DNA of 64,000 bases from an uncultured Chloroflexia bacterium (GTDB lineage Bacteria > Chloroflexota > Ktedonobacteria > Ktedonobacterales > Ktedonobacteraceae), in the NCBI GenBank assembly GCA_963736995.1, contig CAVTRB010000007.1, positions 623,884-687,883 on the forward strand, read 5' to 3'. This document shows positions 34,789 through 54,304 of the stretch, piece by piece. Position 1 is the first letter of the stretch, and each line of letters begins with the position of its first letter. Position numbers and translations under genes: made by a program. The notes under the pieces are model-generated. The model was not told the origin of the DNA. It ran no database searches and saw only the letters and a program-made list of their open reading frames with translations.

Positions 34789-35301
34789 CTACTCTGCCTT
34801 CGCTTCAGCAGGCTGCTCGTCGGGCATAATCAATTGCGCTCCTCCGTCCTTCTTGAGCAACCCCTGCGGACCTGTCCAGAGGACGGGCTTCTGTGCCTGG
34901 TGCGGATGATTCGGCCCAGCGTAGACCTTCAGGCGGGACATGATATCTGCACCCAGGCGATTGTGCATCACCATGCCGCGCACCGCGTGCTCTATAGCGC
35001 GCTCTGGATGCTTGCCCTCGAGCACCTGCCGCAGCGTCTGCGTCTTCAAGCCGCCGGGGTACTGGCTATGGCGATAGTATTTCTTCAGATCCAGACGATT
35101 GCCCGTGACGGCGATCTTCTCCGCGTTGATCACAATCACAAAGTCACCGCTCTGCAGGTGCGGCGTAAACGTTGGTTTATGTTTGCCGCGCAAAATCTGC
35201 GCGATCTGCGATGCCAGACGACCCAGAATCTGACCCTCGGCATCGATGACGTACCAGGTGGGTTGCAAGTCAGCAGCCCTGGCGCTATATGTCTTTTTCA
35301 T
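34789..35301 (-). CDS. rplM: 50S ribosomal protein L13 (C-terminally extended, 170 aa)
   Basis: WYVIDAEGQILGRLASQIAQILRGKHKP. Confidence 0.97.
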   Translation of the reverse strand: MKKTYSARAADLQPTWYVIDAEGQILGRLASQIAQILRGKHKPTFTPHLQSGDFVIVINAEKIAVTGNRLDLKKYYRHSQYPGGLKTQTLRQVLEGKHPERAIEHAVRGMVMHNRLGADIMSRLKVYAGPNHPHQAQKPVLWTGPQGLLKKDGGAQLIMPDEQPAEAKAE

Positions 35302-39171: not shown

Positions 39172-39196
39172 GCTTTGCCATTCCTCCAGGCGCTGC

Positions 39197-39259
39197 GGGC
39201 GCCGATGCTCCCTTAAGGTCGCATTCACAGCCTTCCAGGCTGTGTACCTGCGTCCCTAC
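39197..39259 (-). repeat. ~62-nt REP-like element, copy A (rpsM-rpsK spacer)
   Basis: Minus strand: GTAGGGACGCAGGTACACAGCCTGGAAGGCTGTGAATGCGACCTTAAGGGAGCATCGGCGCCC. Contains the rpsM TAG stop. Confidence 0.85.
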
Positions 39260-39639
39260 TTCTTAGCCGTTGCCTTCTTCTTGCCGGCCACCGTCTTTTT
39301 CGGTCCGCGTCGTGTGCGCGCATTGGTGCGCGTGCGCTGTCCGCGCACCGGCAGATTGCGGCGATGGCGCAGGCCACGGTAACAGTTGATCTCGATCAAC
39401 CGCTTGATATTCATATCCACTTCGCGGCGCAGATCACCCTCGACTTTGTATTCGCGGTCGATCAATTCGCGCAAGCGGTTCACTTCTTCCTCGGTCAAAT
39501 CTTTTACCCGGGTGTCCGGGTTAATGCGCGTTCGCTGCAAAATCTTCCGGCTCGTGGTCGGGCCAATGCCAAAGATATAGGTCAGCGAAACTTCCACACG
39601 CTTGTCGCGTGGAATATCAATGCCGGCAATTCTCGCCAT
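39256..39639 (-). CDS. rpsM: 30S ribosomal protein S13
   Basis: [26 protein letters not shown]. Confidence 0.97.
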
Positions 39640-45525: not shown

Positions 45526-45653
45526 AGCTCAAGCTTCTCCATCGGGCCTGATAGGAGACGTGGTCGGCACTACGTCTCTCTCTGAATGCCCGTACATTTT
45601 CGTCTATTCTATCAATAAACCTGGGCGCTGGCAAGCCTTTTGCCCGGGACGAC

Positions 45654-45716
45654 GGGCGTGCATGCTCCCTTAAGGTCGCATTCAAAGCCTCCCAGGCTCT
45701 GCGCTTACGCCCCTAC
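45654..45716 (-). repeat. ~62-nt REP-like element, copy B (rplF-rplR spacer)
   Basis: Minus strand: GTAGGGGCGTAAGCGCAGAGCCTGGGAGGCTTTGAATGCGACCTTAAGGGAGCATGCACGCCC. Contains the rplF TAG stop. Confidence 0.85.
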
Positions 45717-46288
45717 TTCTTTTTGCCGCCAACTTTACCGGCTTTACCGGCTTTGCGGCGAATGGCCTCGCCCGCGTAACGGATGCCTTTGCCCTTGTAG
45801 GGTTCGGGCTTGCGAACACTGCGGATCTGAGCCGCGACCTCACCAACCAGCTGCTTGTCGATGCCACTGACGCTCACTCTTGTGGCTTTGGTGGCCGCGT
45901 CCACACCCTCGACGTTCAGCGTAATGCCAGCCGGGGGTTGTACCTCAACCGGGTGAGAGTAGCCTACCTGAATAACCAGATTATCGCCCACCTTCGCGGC
46001 ACGATAACCGACGCCATGAATTTCCAGTTCCTTCTTATACCCGTTCGTCACGCCAACGACCATGTTGTTGATCAGCGTGCGATAGAGACCGTGTATTGCC
46101 TTGTGGGGCTTGCTGTCTGAAGGTCGGGAGACGGTCAAAACGCCGTTCTCCATCTCCAGTGTCAGTTCAGATGGTACCTGGTAGGAGAGTTCGCCTTTCG
46201 GCCCTTTGACCGTGACGAAGTTATTCTCGTTCCAGTTTACCTGCACCTTCGGCGGCACGGAAATCGGTGTACGTCCAATACGAGACAT
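45713..46288 (-). CDS. rplF: 50S ribosomal protein L6
   Basis: [17 protein letters not shown]...GVGYRA. Confidence 0.97.
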
Positions 46289-49359: not shown

Positions 49360-50727
49360 CTATGCACCTGTTTCTGATGTGGGTGCGGGCGATGCCGGTG
49401 CCTCCGGCGCTACTGATGTTTCCGGTGTTGCTGGTGTTTCCGGGACAGCAGTCGACTGTATTGGCTGCACCGGCTCCGGTGTCTCAACTGTCTGCGTATC
49501 GGACGCGGATACTCCCTTAAGGTCGTATTCAGAGCCTCCCAGGCTCTGCACCTGCGCCCCTGTGTCCTGCGGCTGCGGGATTTCCACAACTGGAGCAGCC
49601 TGGCTTACCCGGGTTTCGGTAACTTCTGGCTGCTTATCAGGCGCAATTGATTGCGCCCCTACGCCCTGTGCCTGCTGGCTTTCCTGTGGACGCGGGCCGC
49701 GCTCCCCCTGTGGACGCTCACGACGCTCTCCCTGAGGGCGTGGCGCTCGCTCCCCCTGTGGGCGTTCGCGACGCTCTCCCTGCGCCTGTCCCTGTGGGCG
49801 CGGCGCTCGCTCTCCGCCTTCGCGACGTGGACGCTCGCGACGCTCTCCCTGCGGTTGACCCTGCGCCTGTCCCTGTGGGCGCGGCGCTCGCTCCCCCTGT
49901 GGGCGTTCGCGGCGCTCTCCCTGCGGACGCTCCCCGCCTTCGCGACGCTCACCACGCTCCCGGCGTTCGCCGCCTTCACGGCGTGATCCGCGCTCGCCGC
50001 CTTCGCGACGGCGTTCACCACGCTCCCGGCGTTCGCCCTCACGTGGGAAGGCTGATTGAGGGGCCGCTTCCCCGGCTTCACCAGGCTCGCGGCGCTTGCT
50101 CGGCAGCACATCACCCTTATATATCCATACTTTGATACCAATTATGCCAAAGGTGGTATGCGCTTCTGCCTGGCCATAATCAATATCGGCACGCAGCGTA
50201 TGCAGGGGAACTTTTCCCTCTACCTCTTTCTCGGAGCGGGCAATTTCCGCTCCACCGAGGCGACCACCAACGATAATCTTGACGCCTTTCGCCCCGGAGC
50301 GCTGCGCCTTTTGCACCGCCTGCTTCATGGCACGGCGGAACGAGACTCGCTTCTCCAGCTGCTCGGCGATACTGCGTCCAACCAGTGTCGCGTCGAGTTC
50401 GGGCTGGCGAATCTCCATGATGTTCAGGCGCACGCGCTTGTGCGTCTTCGCCTCCAGTTGAGCGCGCAGTTTGTCAACCTTCTCGCCACTTTTCCCGATC
50501 ACGATTCCGGGGCGGGCAGTGTAAATGGTCACTGCCACCTGATTGGCGGCGGCACGCTCGATCTCAATCCGCGACACCGAGGCGCTCACCAGCTCCCGGT
50601 TGATCAGTTTCCTGACCTCGTAATCTTCCGCGAATATATCTTTGTAGTTCCGCCCGGCATACCAGCGCGATTGCCATCCCTTGACGACGCCGAGCCGGAA
50701 CCCTGTGGGATGCACTTTCTGTCCCAA
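49360..50727 (-). CDS. rpsC: 30S ribosomal protein S3 with ~245-aa low-complexity C-terminal extension (455 aa)
   Basis: Canonical [13 protein letters not shown]...KVWIYKGD in aa 1-~210. The same frame then stays open through Arg/Glu/Pro/Gln repeats and a REP-derived segment to 49360. Confidence 0.93.
49501..49562 (-). repeat. ~62-nt REP-like element, copy C, inside the rpsC reading frame
   Basis: Minus strand: ACAGGGGCGCAGGTGCAGAGCCTGGGAGGCTCTGAATACGACCTTAAGGGAGTATCCGCGTCC, translated as [21 protein letters not shown]. Confidence 0.85.
49684..50043 (-). repeat. Imperfect in-frame tandem repeats encoding ([20 protein letters not shown])-like units of the S3 tail
   Basis: Repeated strings such as CTCCCCCTGTGGGCGTTCGCGACGCTCTCCCTG recur along the + strand. 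The protein shows reiterated [16 protein letters not shown]. Confidence 0.8.
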
Positions 50728-52278: not shown

Positions 52279-52575
52279 CTACGCCTTCAATGCTTCAATT
52301 GTCTGGCCCTCCGCCAGGGTCACAATCGCCTTCTTCCACTCGCGAGCTTCGATTGATCGCGGCATGCGTCCACGCAGGTGAATCTTGCGCGGCTTGCCTG
52401 GCATGCGCATGATATTGACCGAAACCACGCGCACGTTAAACATCTGCTCAACGGCGCGGCGGACATCGATCTTGTTTGCCTCCAGGGCAACCCGGAATGT
52501 ATATTTATTCTGCTCCTGCAGCTTCATCGATTTCTCAGTGATGATGCCGTTGCGCAGTACCTCTGTGATCTCCAC
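52279..52575 (-). CDS. rplW: 50S ribosomal protein L23
   Basis: ITEKSMKLQEQNKYTFRV...VNIMRMPGK. Confidence 0.96.
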   Translation of the reverse strand: MEITEVLRNGIITEKSMKLQEQNKYTFRVALEANKIDVRRAVEQMFNVRVVSVNIMRMPGKPRKIHLRGRMPRSIEAREWKKAIVTLAEGQTIEALKA

Positions 52576-52604
52576 AGTTTTTACCTCCTACCTGGCAGCT
52601 GCAG

Positions 52605-53474
52605 CTACTCGTTCTCTTGAGCTGCAATTTCTTCCGACTCGACCCCGGTCTCGGTCTCAGCTTCCGCAGTCGCCTCGGCCTCGGTCTGAACATTTGTCCC
52701 GGATTCACTGGCAGTTGCCTGTTCCTGCTCGTCGGGCGCGGATACTTCCCTAAGGTCGTATTCAGAGCCTGGCAGGCTCTGCGCCTGCGCCCCTCCGTCC
52801 TCATTCGCCAGCCGCTGCGTAGCCTCTTCGGCGCTCAAGCCTTCGCCGAAAACCATCTCAATCCAGCGCACAGTGCTTTCCGGCATAATCAAAGAGTCAT
52901 GCTTCAGCATCTCCACGACGTTAATCGAGGCGACATGCTGTACTTTGGCACTGGGAATGTTGCGCGTCGAAAGAATGATGTTCTCATCACGCTCTGGCAG
53001 CATAATCAGGACATTTTTGCCCTTCTCGGCTACCGCCAGTCGATCCAGCAGGGCCAGCATCTCTTTAGTACGCGGGGTCTCCATGGCCAGGTCTTCAACG
53101 ACGATCAATTGCTCGTTGGCAACTTTGTCCGAAAGGACGGAGCGAATTGCCAGACGGCGCATCTTCTTCGGCACATCATGATGATACGGGTGCGGCCTCG
53201 GGCCAAACACTACGCCACCATGACGGAACTGTGGAGAGCGTGTGCTTCCCTGGCGAGCATGGCCCGTTCCCTTCTGCCGGTATGGTTTCTTATTGCCGCC
53301 CGATACCTCGGCGCGAGTCCTGGTCGAAGCAGTCCCCTGGCGACGATTCACCAGTTGCGCTGTGACAACCTGGTGGAGAACCGCCATATTGGGGTTGACT
53401 CCGAATACCTGCTCGCTCAGTTCGAGCTCTTTTACGGCCTCTCCGGCCATGTTATATACTGTAGTCGAGGGCAT
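52605..53474 (-). CDS. rplD: 50S ribosomal protein L4 with ~75-aa acidic C-terminal extension (289 aa)
   Basis: GGNKKPYRQKGTGHARQGSTRSPQFRHGGVVFGP. The extension begins about aa 211 and runs through REP copy D. Confidence 0.94.
   Translation of the reverse strand: MPSTTVYNMAGEAVKELELSEQVFGVNPNMAVLHQVVTAQLVNRRQGTASTRTRAEVSGGNKKPYRQKGTGHARQGSTRSPQFRHGGVVFGPRPHPYHHDVPKKMRRLAIRSVLSDKVANEQLIVVEDLAMETPRTKEMLALLDRLAVAEKGKNVLIMLPERDENIILSTRNIPSAKVQHVASINVVEMLKHDSLIMPESTVRWIEMVFGEGLSAEEATQRLANEDGGAQAQSLPGSEYDLREVSAPDEQEQATASESGTNVQTEAEATAEAETETGVESEEIAAQENE
52734..52796 (-). repeat. ~62-nt REP-like element, copy D, inside the rplD reading frame
   Basis: Minus strand: GGAGGGGCGCAGGCGCAGAGCCTGCCAGGCTCTGAATACGACCTTAGGGAAGTATCCGCGCCC, translated as GGAQAQSLPGSEYDLREVSAP. 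Confidence 0.85.
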
Positions 53475-53479
53475 TTCGG

Positions 53480-54304
53480 TTACCTCATCACATGCTTCTT
53501 CACTATGAGTAAGCCGCCATTGGCACCGGGTACGGACCCTTTCACCAGCAGCAGGTTACGCTCGGCGTCAGCTTGAATTACTTGCAATCCTTTGATCGTC
53601 ACACGTTCGTTCCCCATGTGACCGGCCATGCGCGTTCCCTTCAGTACGCGGCCCGGCGTAGTGCCGGAACCAATCGAACCAGGAGCACGCAGGCGATCAG
53701 ACTGGCCGTGTGTCTTTGGGCCACCACGGAAGCCGTGGCGTTTGACTCCGCCCTGGAACCCTTTACCTTTGGAGGTACCGACCACATCGATTTCCTCACC
53801 AACGGTAAACAGGTCTGCGCCGAACTGCTTGCCCAGCTCCAGGCCCTCTGCGTTCGCGCCCTCTTGCAAACCCACCTCGCGCAGCACCTTGAATGGCCCA
53901 AGTTCCGGCCCCGGTCGGCGCTGGCGGCTGTTCTGCACTTTCAGCAACTTTTCGATTTGCTTATCTTTTTTCTCTGCGGTAGCGGTAGCGGTTCCTGCTT
54001 CTCCTGCTGCCCCCGTTTCGCCCTCTTTTTTACGCTGCTCTTGCTGGTATGTCTGCAAGCGCCGACGTTGTGCTTTCAGTAATGGCAGGCTGTGGCCTAA
54101 ATGTCCCAGTTCAGCACGAACGGAATGCTTGAGCGTCTTTGGCTCGAAACCAATCTGTACTGCTTCATAGCCATCTCGAGCCGGTGTCTTGATCTGTGTC
54201 ACGACACACGGGCCGACTTCTATCACAGTTACTGGAATGGCTGTGCCATTAGGCCCAAATACCTGGGTCATGCCGACCTTCCTGCCCAATAATGCATTCA
54301 GCAT
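53480..54304 (-). CDS. rplC: 50S ribosomal protein L3 with ~60-aa internal insertion (274 aa)
   Basis: LLGRKVGMTQVF...GTSKGKGFQGGVKRHGF. Inserted Lys/Glu/Gln-rich segment LKAQRRRLQTYQQEQRKKEGE... Confidence 0.95.
   Translation of the reverse strand: MLNALLGRKVGMTQVFGPNGTAIPVTVIEVGPCVVTQIKTPARDGYEAVQIGFEPKTLKHSVRAELGHLGHSLPLLKAQRRRLQTYQQEQRKKEGETGAAGEAGTATATAEKKDKQIEKLLKVQNSRQRRPGPELGPFKVLREVGLQEGANAEGLELGKQFGADLFTVGEEIDVVGTSKGKGFQGGVKRHGFRGGPKTHGQSDRLRAPGSIGSGTTPGRVLKGTRMAGHMGNERVTIKGLQVIQADAERNLLLVKGSVPGANGGLLIVKKHVMR

Follow-up and report, generated by a model that had tools for sequence, protein, structure and literature searches.

In Escherichia coli, repetitive extragenic palindromic (REP) sequences and the bacterial interspersed mosaic elements (BIMEs) are GC-rich, extragenic palindromes of operon spacers that form simple hairpins, are cotranscribed, and are linked to REP-associated tyrosine transposases (RAYTs). 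The subject of this study is a REP-like repeat inside rplD, the gene for ribosomal protein uL4, in a stretch of 64,000 nucleotides (nt) from an uncultured Chloroflexia bacterium of the family Ktedonobacteraceae (assembly GCA_963736995.1, contig CAVTRB010000007.1, positions 623,884 to 687,883 of the forward strand; hereafter, the window). Whereas the E. coli elements are essentially extragenic simple hairpins, the family to which the rplD repeat belongs is composite, often intragenic, and was found in one species. Our comparisons indicate that rplD very probably acquired its copy when a species-specific REP derivative inserted, recently and in frame, into the disordered tail of uL4, a tail that is itself ancestral.

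Di Nocera et al. 2013 (PMC3733652) described GTAG REPs, which they also detected in Chloroflexi; the TAG of these repeats is often the stop codon of the upstream open reading frame (ORF), and RAYT genes are flanked by REPs. A minority of GTAG REPs lie wholly within ORFs of known proteins, notably those of replication and repair genes, where they contribute ~20–30 amino acids (aa), and these intragenic REP peptides are assumed to be tolerable in linkers and at termini (PMC3733652). The GTAG head, the TAG stops, and the intragenic minority all have their likeness in the family described here, and the genome also carries RAYT-like genes flanked by GTAG REPs, though of other heads than that of the rplD sub-family. 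However, GTAG REPs are simple hairpins of 20–40 nt, whereas the present element is a three-way junction of ~66 nt and about a quarter of its copies are intragenic. Furthermore, the Di Nocera survey was without Ktedonobacteria, and the hosts in our genome include three ribosomal proteins; the term “ribosomal protein” is absent from the accessible part of the supplementary text of Di Nocera et al. (PMC3733652).

Repeats that are read in frame are also known as Rickettsia palindromic elements (RPEs; Ogata et al. 2000, as summarized in PMC10969869). RPEs are selfish palindromes found in frame in many unrelated functional genes, whose products gain a conserved peptide at sites that the protein fold can accommodate, and the orthologues in related genomes are without them (PMC10969869). 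This behavior is matched here, in that one repeat lies in frame in several unrelated, intact genes and the orthologues of relatives are without the insert. RPEs are ~100–150 bp in length, reside in the reduced genomes of obligate intracellular bacteria, are CGTC-tagged or untagged, and have no known transposase, whereas the present element is ~66 nt, of the GTAG type, and resides in a free-living soil bacterium with RAYTs. Judged from size and tag (GTAG vs CGTC), homology to RPEs is unlikely. In Coxiella burnetii, QMITEs are small, non-autonomous repeats that extend across the 3′ ends of functional genes, so altering the C-terminal residues, and enhC of the Dugway strain has a true repeat-derived 3′ extension (PMC5896051). 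In these cases the C-terminus is changed up to a stop in or beside the element, which is the mechanism that the initial annotation of the window had proposed for rplD, but the rplD element is internal and the stop is unchanged. QMITEs also have terminal inverted repeats and direct repeats, neither of which was seen for the present element. The type of event is therefore already known from intragenic REPs, as it is from RPEs; what is new is the composite three-way-junction architecture, the confinement to one species, the high intragenic share, and the three ribosomal-protein hosts.

Comparison of the genome under study (G000) with two congeners (G002 and G001) located the insertion precisely. 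The rplD gene is flanked by rplC and rplW, the conserved S10-operon position, and its product matches Ribosomal_L4 (Pfam PF00573; E 1.7e-69, 233.7 bits) over profile positions 1–189 of 190. Beyond the Pfam domain, uL4 reads VFGEGLSAEEATQRLANEDGGAQAQSLPGSEYDLREVSAPDEQEQATASESGTNVQTEAEATAEAETETGVESEEIAAQENE up to the TAG, and a spacer of 29 nt separates this stop from the GTG of rplW (52575). The operon of G002 is ~90% identical to that of G000 at the nucleotide level, and the 300 nt upstream of 52793 align with G002 gap-free at 91% identity. At this point G000 rplD has one extra block in the alignment with both congeners, GGGCGCAGG...GCGCCCGACGAGCAGG at 52724–52792, which is 69 nt as aligned and a net gain of 66 nt, or 22 codons, over G002, in frame. 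From 42 nt beyond the insert into rplW, G000 and G002 are 84.6% identical, and both congeners align with G000 at the distal tail, the ENE-TAG ending, the Shine-Dalgarno sequence, and the rplW start. The last residues of the G002 tail are as in G000 (EEI.A.ENE) and the same TAG follows. Because the end of the tail, the TAG, and the Shine-Dalgarno/rplW start are all shared with G002, the stop at 52605 is, by alignment, evidently ancestral.

The tail itself is also old. L4 was taken from 29 genomes related at the level of family or order and from another 80 Ktedonobacteria genomes (~110 in all), and every one of these proteins was observed to run past the VFGEG-type motif into a C-terminal tail, which in the 80 genomes was 19–95 aa long and nearly always strongly acidic. 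The element peptide was found in none of the ~110 L4 proteins, and a covariance model of the element (described below) detected no copy in the rplD loci of the relatives or in the operons of G002, G001, and a third genome, G020.

Within uL4, the element starts at aa 227–228 and reads as GGAQAQSLPGSEYDLREVSAPDE, with the acidic tail after it. The predicted tryptic peptide over the 5′ junction is LANEDGGAQAQSLPGSEYDLR; SLPGSEYDLR, which the initial annotation had named as a peptide for mass spectrometry, is not tryptic alone. An AlphaFold2 model of uL4, for which 51 Ktedonobacteria L4 sequences were used, had a per-residue confidence (pLDDT) of ~85–94 in the globular core and a low pLDDT in a long loop (residues 47–99), which we interpret as the extended, rRNA-inserting loop. 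A helix was modelled over residues 215–231, and pLDDT was <50 from about residue 233 to the C-terminus. The insert is outside the Pfam domain. By the model, it starts where the last helix ends and falls for the most part within the disordered tail, which is consistent with its being a tolerated passenger; that it has no function of its own is the most likely reading of the uL4 peptide. The annotation of a 289-aa L4 is real, and neither trimming nor a read-through flag is warranted. Coordinates of these and other features are collected in Table 1.

Table 1. Positions of the rplD features, the repeat copies, and the putative transposase genes. Positions are those of the window, except for the RAYT-like genes, which are given by contig (C2, C7) of the assembly.
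Feature	Position	Strand	Basis
rplD (uL4) ORF, 289 aa + TAG stop	52605–53474	minus	ORF list, Pfam
Ribosomal_L4 domain, aa 17–207	52854–53426	minus	Pfam; AlphaFold2 core
Proximal ancestral tail VFGEGLSAEEATQRLANEDG; kept in relatives, modelled helix 215–231	52793–52853	minus	Alignments, AlphaFold2
Inserted REP-derived element, ~aa 228–250 = GAQAQSLPGSEYDLREVSAPDEQ	52724–52792	minus	G000/G002/G001 DNA alignment
Distal acidic tail, ends EEIAAQENE; homologous to G002 tail	52608–52723	minus	DNA alignment
Ancestral rplD TAG stop, position as in G002 and G001	52605–52607	minus	DNA alignment
Shine-Dalgarno AGGAGG (52584–52589) and rplW GTG start (52573–52575)	52573–52589	minus	Sequence
Copy D, in rplD tail; covariance hit 52730–52794, E 2e-16	52725–52801	minus	Repeat search
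Copy D outer stem, 5′ arm GGGGCGC; GGAG at 52793–52796 shares last G	52787–52793	minus	Fold
Copy D hairpin H1, CAGAGCC-TGCCA-GGCTCTG	52763–52781	minus	Fold, compensatory changes in 26 copies
Copy D hairpin H2, ATAC-GACCTTAGGGAA-GTAT, read as YDLREV	52742–52761	minus	Fold, covariation
Copy D outer stem, 3′ arm GCGCCC + GACGAGCAGG extension	52724–52739	minus	Fold, copy comparison
Copy C, in rpsC (uS3) tail, 21-residue peptide; closest to copy D (86%)	49492–49568	minus	Repeat search
Copy B, rplF-rplR spacer; GTAG head = rplF TAG stop	45645–45721	minus	Repeat search, alignment
Copy A, rpsM-rpsK spacer; GTAG head = rpsM TAG stop	39188–39264	minus	Repeat search, alignment
Second REP type GTAGGGGCGCAATCAATTGCGCC, simple hairpin, in-frame 12–13-residue peptide in rpsC tail	49625–49662	minus	Repeat search
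REP-bracketed RAYT-like Y1 gene 1	C2:766166–766537		
REP-bracketed RAYT-like Y1 gene 2	C7:931820–932176		
REP-bracketed RAYT-like Y1 gene 3	C2:168112–168474		
REP-bracketed RAYT-like Y1 gene 4	C7:867927–868184		
REP-bracketed RAYT-like Y1 gene 5	C2:1158488–1158751		

The window holds four copies of the repeat (A–D), each of ~77 nt. All lie in the direction in which the ribosomal-protein cluster is transcribed (minus strand), and the covariance model recognized them with E values of 1e-16 to 1e-20. Each copy alone folds as a three-way junction of approximately -29 to -32 kcal/mol, in which an outer stem (GGGGCGC/GCGCCC) encloses two hairpins, H1 (CAGAGCC-UGGGA-GGCUCUG) and H2 (AURC-GACCUUAAGGGA-GYAU). 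A unit of ~60–66 nt with two hairpins nested in an outer stem falls outside the definition of a REP as a single hairpin of 20–40 nt, although REPs that have this head and form simple hairpins do occur elsewhere in the genome. Compensatory substitutions were observed in 10 of the 12 pairs of H1 and H2 among 26 copies that had been preselected with a stem filter. The head of copy D reads GGAG and that of copy C reads ACAG, and these two copies are read in one frame (GAQxQSLxGSEYDLxxVSAxD). The GACGAGCAGG extension at the 3′ end of copy D is also present in the S6 copy, and the MutL copy has the near-identical AACGAGCAGA.

The H1–H2 module was found in different outer stems (GGGGCGC, GGGGCGA, and GGGACAGG). 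At sites A and B, a simple REP-like hairpin with a TAA stop occupies in G002 (locus L031) the place of the three-way junction and TAG of G000; it seems that either one REP type replaced another there or the H1–H2 module entered an existing REP. Because the module occurs in several REP stems, and because at A and B it replaces the plain REP of G002, the comparison suggests that H1–H2 may itself be mobile; an unusual and improbable reading would be that it is the mobile unit and homes into the loops of different REP stems. The tail of rpsC also contains a second REP type, a GTAGGGGCGCAAT..ATTGCGCC hairpin that is missing from both G002 and G001. Members of this second family were also noted at 34808, 54326, and 54732, with copies in the rpsJ-rplC and tuf-rpsJ spacers.

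Scanning the 4.53-Mb assembly of G000 for the structure returned ~40 copies of the element, and the covariance model, which was built from 26 copies, found 50 at E <1e-5, distributed over all 7 contigs. The 40 nearest genomes, including both congeners, gave only marginal covariance hits with E values of at least 9e-4. The diagnostic pattern GCCTGGGAGGC-N(6-12)-CGACCTTRAGGGAG had no match in two public collections, one of 185,579 species genomes and the other of metagenome contigs of the Joint Genome Institute (JGI), although this pattern covers the commonest H1 loop only and diverged relatives could be missed. By its distribution, the family is evidently the product of a recent, species-specific burst. 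Approximately 75% of copies are intergenic even though ~82% of the genome is coding. The intergenic copies A and B and many copies elsewhere in the genome read GTAGGG(G/A)CG, with GTAG directly 5′ of the GC-rich stem, and GTAGGGGCG occurs 291 times in the genome vs 55 expected.

Candidate transposases are also present. The genome has six Y1-transposase ORFs, five of which are bracketed by inverted, GTAGGG-headed repeats in the classic REPtron layout, and two of the three Y1 ORFs tested pass the cut-off of the NCBIfam model REP_Tyr_transpos (NF047646), with the third just below. For two of the RAYTs, the flanking repeats have the same heads as the GGGGCGA and GGGACA sub-families of the element, and for one of the two the 3′ flank agrees as well. 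Each of the five RAYT-like genes is accompanied by repeats of a different sequence family, and the genome therefore holds several REPtrons; the sixth Y1 ORF (C3:57611) is without inverted GTAGGG flanks.

The uL4 copy is one of many within genes. Genes were called with a home-made codon-usage model (3,477 genes, 82% coding), and the sense, antisense, and intragenic counts given here are accordingly approximate. Some 12–13 of the 50 copies are inside high-scoring genes, and the frame is always preserved. These copies sit in tails or linkers, and in the hosts tested the Pfam domains on either side are intact. The sense hosts are uS3, uL4, bS6, MutL, a PLD-family protein, a fused oxoprolinase/hydantoinase A-B, a MurT-like ligase, a FAD oxidoreductase, and PFOR; the antisense hosts are an FtsK/EccC-like ATPase, PFOR again, and an MFS transporter (identified as MFS by eye, outside the Pfam run). 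Since the genome is 82% coding and only ~25% of copies are intragenic, most insertions into coding sequence must have been purged. The PFOR-like gene (C2:268205-270901) carries one copy in sense (270836-270901) and one in antisense (268940-269004), and seems to be split by a frameshift between them, so that it may be a pseudogene or contain an assembly error.

In all four of the genes that were checked (uL4, uS3, bS6, and MutL), the insert is missing from the orthologues of the closest relatives. S3 is 455 aa long in G000, compared with 415 and 430 aa for the orthologues of G002 and G001, respectively. The bS6 protein (232 aa, C5:133045-133743, locus L121) has both the element peptide SLGGSAESVERSQYDLGGVSAPDEQ and a peptide of the second REP type, AVGTQFIAPDEQ, in its acidic tail, and G002 bS6 is without this block of ~50 aa. 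In MutL (C2:972278-974161, locus L118; element at 972736-972800), an 18-aa in-frame insert follows HRAHERVIYEHL in the MutL_C region. At this site G002 and G001 have a native GGCGCxCAxGC that resembles the 5′ arm of the element, such that the sequence gained in G000 (54 nt) is limited to H1, H2, and the 3′ arm, and this resemblance hints that copying may have been assisted by homology. Two sense frames are open through the element, one of which is rich in Arg, Trp, and Cys. All nine sense coding copies use the other, hydrophilic frame, in which H2 is read as DL(K/E/R/G)G (p ~0.002 if the frames were equally likely).

Based on these observations, we propose the following course of events for rplD. 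The uL4 of this bacterium carries the family-wide, acidic, disordered tail, ending at the ancestral stop. After the split from the sequenced congeners, one species-specific repeat was copied into this tail, and, as the insert is a multiple of three with a stop-free sense frame and a hydrophilic peptide, the gene remained intact, with codons for 22 extra residues. Such insertions would persist where a protein is permissive, in tails and linkers, and be purged elsewhere. The engine was likely one of the genome's RAYTs, or recombination between copies; this mechanism and the neutrality of the peptide are what we infer from the pattern of insertions.

Several points weigh against this reading. No RAYT was found beside a REP with the GGGGCGCAGG head, that of the sub-family of copies A–D, in an assembly that is 91% complete. 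Neither a target-site duplication nor any other footprint of transposition was seen at the L4 and MutL sites in comparison with the empty sites of G002 and G001. Five of the ~50 copies are in ribosomal-protein genes or spacers, and four of the six closest members of the sub-family lie within 13.6 kb in the ribosomal-protein cluster, with a related fifth in rpsF on another contig; purely random insertion does not predict such clustering. Candidates for this local enrichment are local hopping or gene conversion, exposed single-stranded DNA in highly transcribed genes, and long permissive tails. The uniform frame of H2 shows that the encoded peptide is under selection, possibly in excess of mere tolerance. 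Finally, translation through the element is deduced from the intact ORF. Classification as a MITE (a miniature transposable element with inverted repeats) was also considered and rejected, as no target-site duplication is visible at these two sites, although the outer stem could pass as a very short terminal inverted repeat.

The bias toward ribosomal-protein genes raises the question of function. The H1–H2 module may have been retained preferentially in the three ribosomal-protein tails and two operon spacers, in all of which it is in sense orientation, with its RNA or its ~22-aa peptide conferring a novel property, particular to this species, on the ribosome or on its mRNAs. We consider this very unlikely; if true, uS3, uL4, and bS6 would have a common docking motif, or their mRNAs a co-regulatory RNA handle.

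In the RNA form of this idea, the three-way junction would be kept in ribosomal-protein mRNAs because it acts there, for example in processing, as a barrier to decay, or in the binding of a protein, and the coding copies would be selected for their RNA. The sense orientation of all four copies of the ribosomal-protein cluster, the enrichment in ribosomal-protein genes and spacers, the stability of the folds, and the compensatory changes in H1 and H2 are all consistent with this. However, a constraint at the DNA level (on single-stranded DNA or by a RAYT) predicts covariation too, and the copies counted had been stem-filtered. The congeners and 38 other relatives are without the family, and their operons work. 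Three to four of the coding copies are antisense, and the intergenic copies are ~13 sense vs ~14 antisense to flanking genes by our crude gene calls, a lack of strand preference that speaks against any family-wide, strand-specific role of the RNA. Rfam 15 gave no match in the window at gathering thresholds, and a search of the copy C region to E = 10 returned only chance hits (E 2 and 3.8). A conserved functional RNA was rejected as the principal explanation, because all relatives are without the element and there is no intergenic strand bias, and we regard it as highly improbable.

Still less probable is that the ~22-aa peptide of the uS3, uL4, and bS6 tails was recruited as a short linear motif at the surface of the ribosome. 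The peptide is indeed carried by three surface-exposed ribosomal-protein tails, and the choice of the same one of two open H2 frames in nine of nine sense coding copies also speaks for such a role. However, the Arg/Trp/Cys-rich nature of the other frame means that the bias is explained by tolerance, and the peptide is also found in the unrelated enzymes MutL, PLD-family protein, oxoprolinase, MurT, and PFOR. Furthermore, it is species-specific and recent, and AlphaFold2 gives no structure there.

The initial annotation had explained the rplD ORF by a loss of its stop: a REP just downstream of the original rplD stop, a mutation that turned GTAG into GGAG, and translation that then continued across the REP as far as the following stop. 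Much of the description on which it was based held up. The ORF does run through a repeat for which “REP-like” is the right label, the intergenic copies do start with a GTAG whose TAG is the stop of rpsM and rplF, the corresponding rplD bases are GGAG, and an essential ribosomal protein gene does encode a repeat-derived peptide, the translation of which would follow from the ORF. The difference in bases is therefore correct, but the equivalence of the stops is not. The TAG of the GTAG head is one base off the reading frame of rplD and rpsC, and a T at 52795 in place of the G would give GTA (Val) and leave the ORF open. Because that TAG lies outside the L4 frame, the change from GTAG to GGAG cannot be the loss of a stop. 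The comparison with relatives leads to the same result, as ~110 relatives have the tail and none has the REP, their long acidic tails being without REP similarity, an outcome that the initial annotation had itself listed as one that would overturn its model. The DNA downstream of the element is homologous to the coding tail of G002 and ends at the same stop. We therefore rejected a stop-loss or read-through extension of the C-terminus as extremely unlikely, since relatives have coding tails, and G000, G002, and G001 share an orthologous stop and an orthologous spacer downstream of it; the element is an internal insertion.

There is next to no chance that the insertion or its open frame is an assembly or sequencing error and the true protein shorter or element-free, for although the genome is a 7-contig soil assembly, the PFOR-like gene elsewhere seems frameshifted (so that some errors may exist), and short-read unitigs leave 52711–52734 uncovered, the frame is open, the distal tail agrees with G002 in frame, and unitigs of two runs, from two soil metagenomes of one study (one sample of which may be the source of the assembly), match 52735–52885, 52755–52905, and 52559–52710 with zero differences and so span both the junction of the L4 body with the 5′ end of the element and the distal tail with its stop. 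The rplD/element junction is not an assembly artefact.

Some further observations concern the tails of ribosomal proteins in this lineage, in which long, low-complexity extensions appear to be general. The uS3 protein (rpsC, 49360-50727) ends in a tail of ~250 aa, built of ERRERPQG-type repeats and common to the congeners (415–455 aa in total), and uL3 (rplC, 53480-54304) has a charged insertion inside the protein. None of the RNA runs contained the element-bearing tail. In the one metatranscriptome that reached this region (X9), a soil contig from a related organism, corresponding to window positions 52590-52887, carries rplD-rplW with 117 nt vs 180 nt here, and indicates that a shorter, element-free L4 tail is transcribed in a relative. 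A sub-clade of Ktedonobacteria (rplD loci L108, L112, and L115-L117) has a common, non-acidic motif in the L4 tail, EPLIAPAQGETLPLVPTPSEDG, the DNA of which forms no clear palindrome. The EPLIAPAQGETLPLVP motif of some Ktedonobacteria L4 tails was considered as a second repeat-derived motif and rejected, as its DNA forms no strong palindrome.

Overall, a recent burst of a REP-type element has put the same ~22-residue peptide, in frame, into the genes for three ribosomal proteins and for at least six enzymes in a single species of free-living soil bacterium. In-frame selfish palindromes are best known from Rickettsia, and this genome provides a clean second setting, with empty-site orthologues and candidate transposases. 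The strict choice of frame among the coding copies amounts to a small natural experiment on the peptides that a cell tolerates, and the long, disordered tails of Ktedonobacteria ribosomal proteins serve as permissive landing pads for such insertions.

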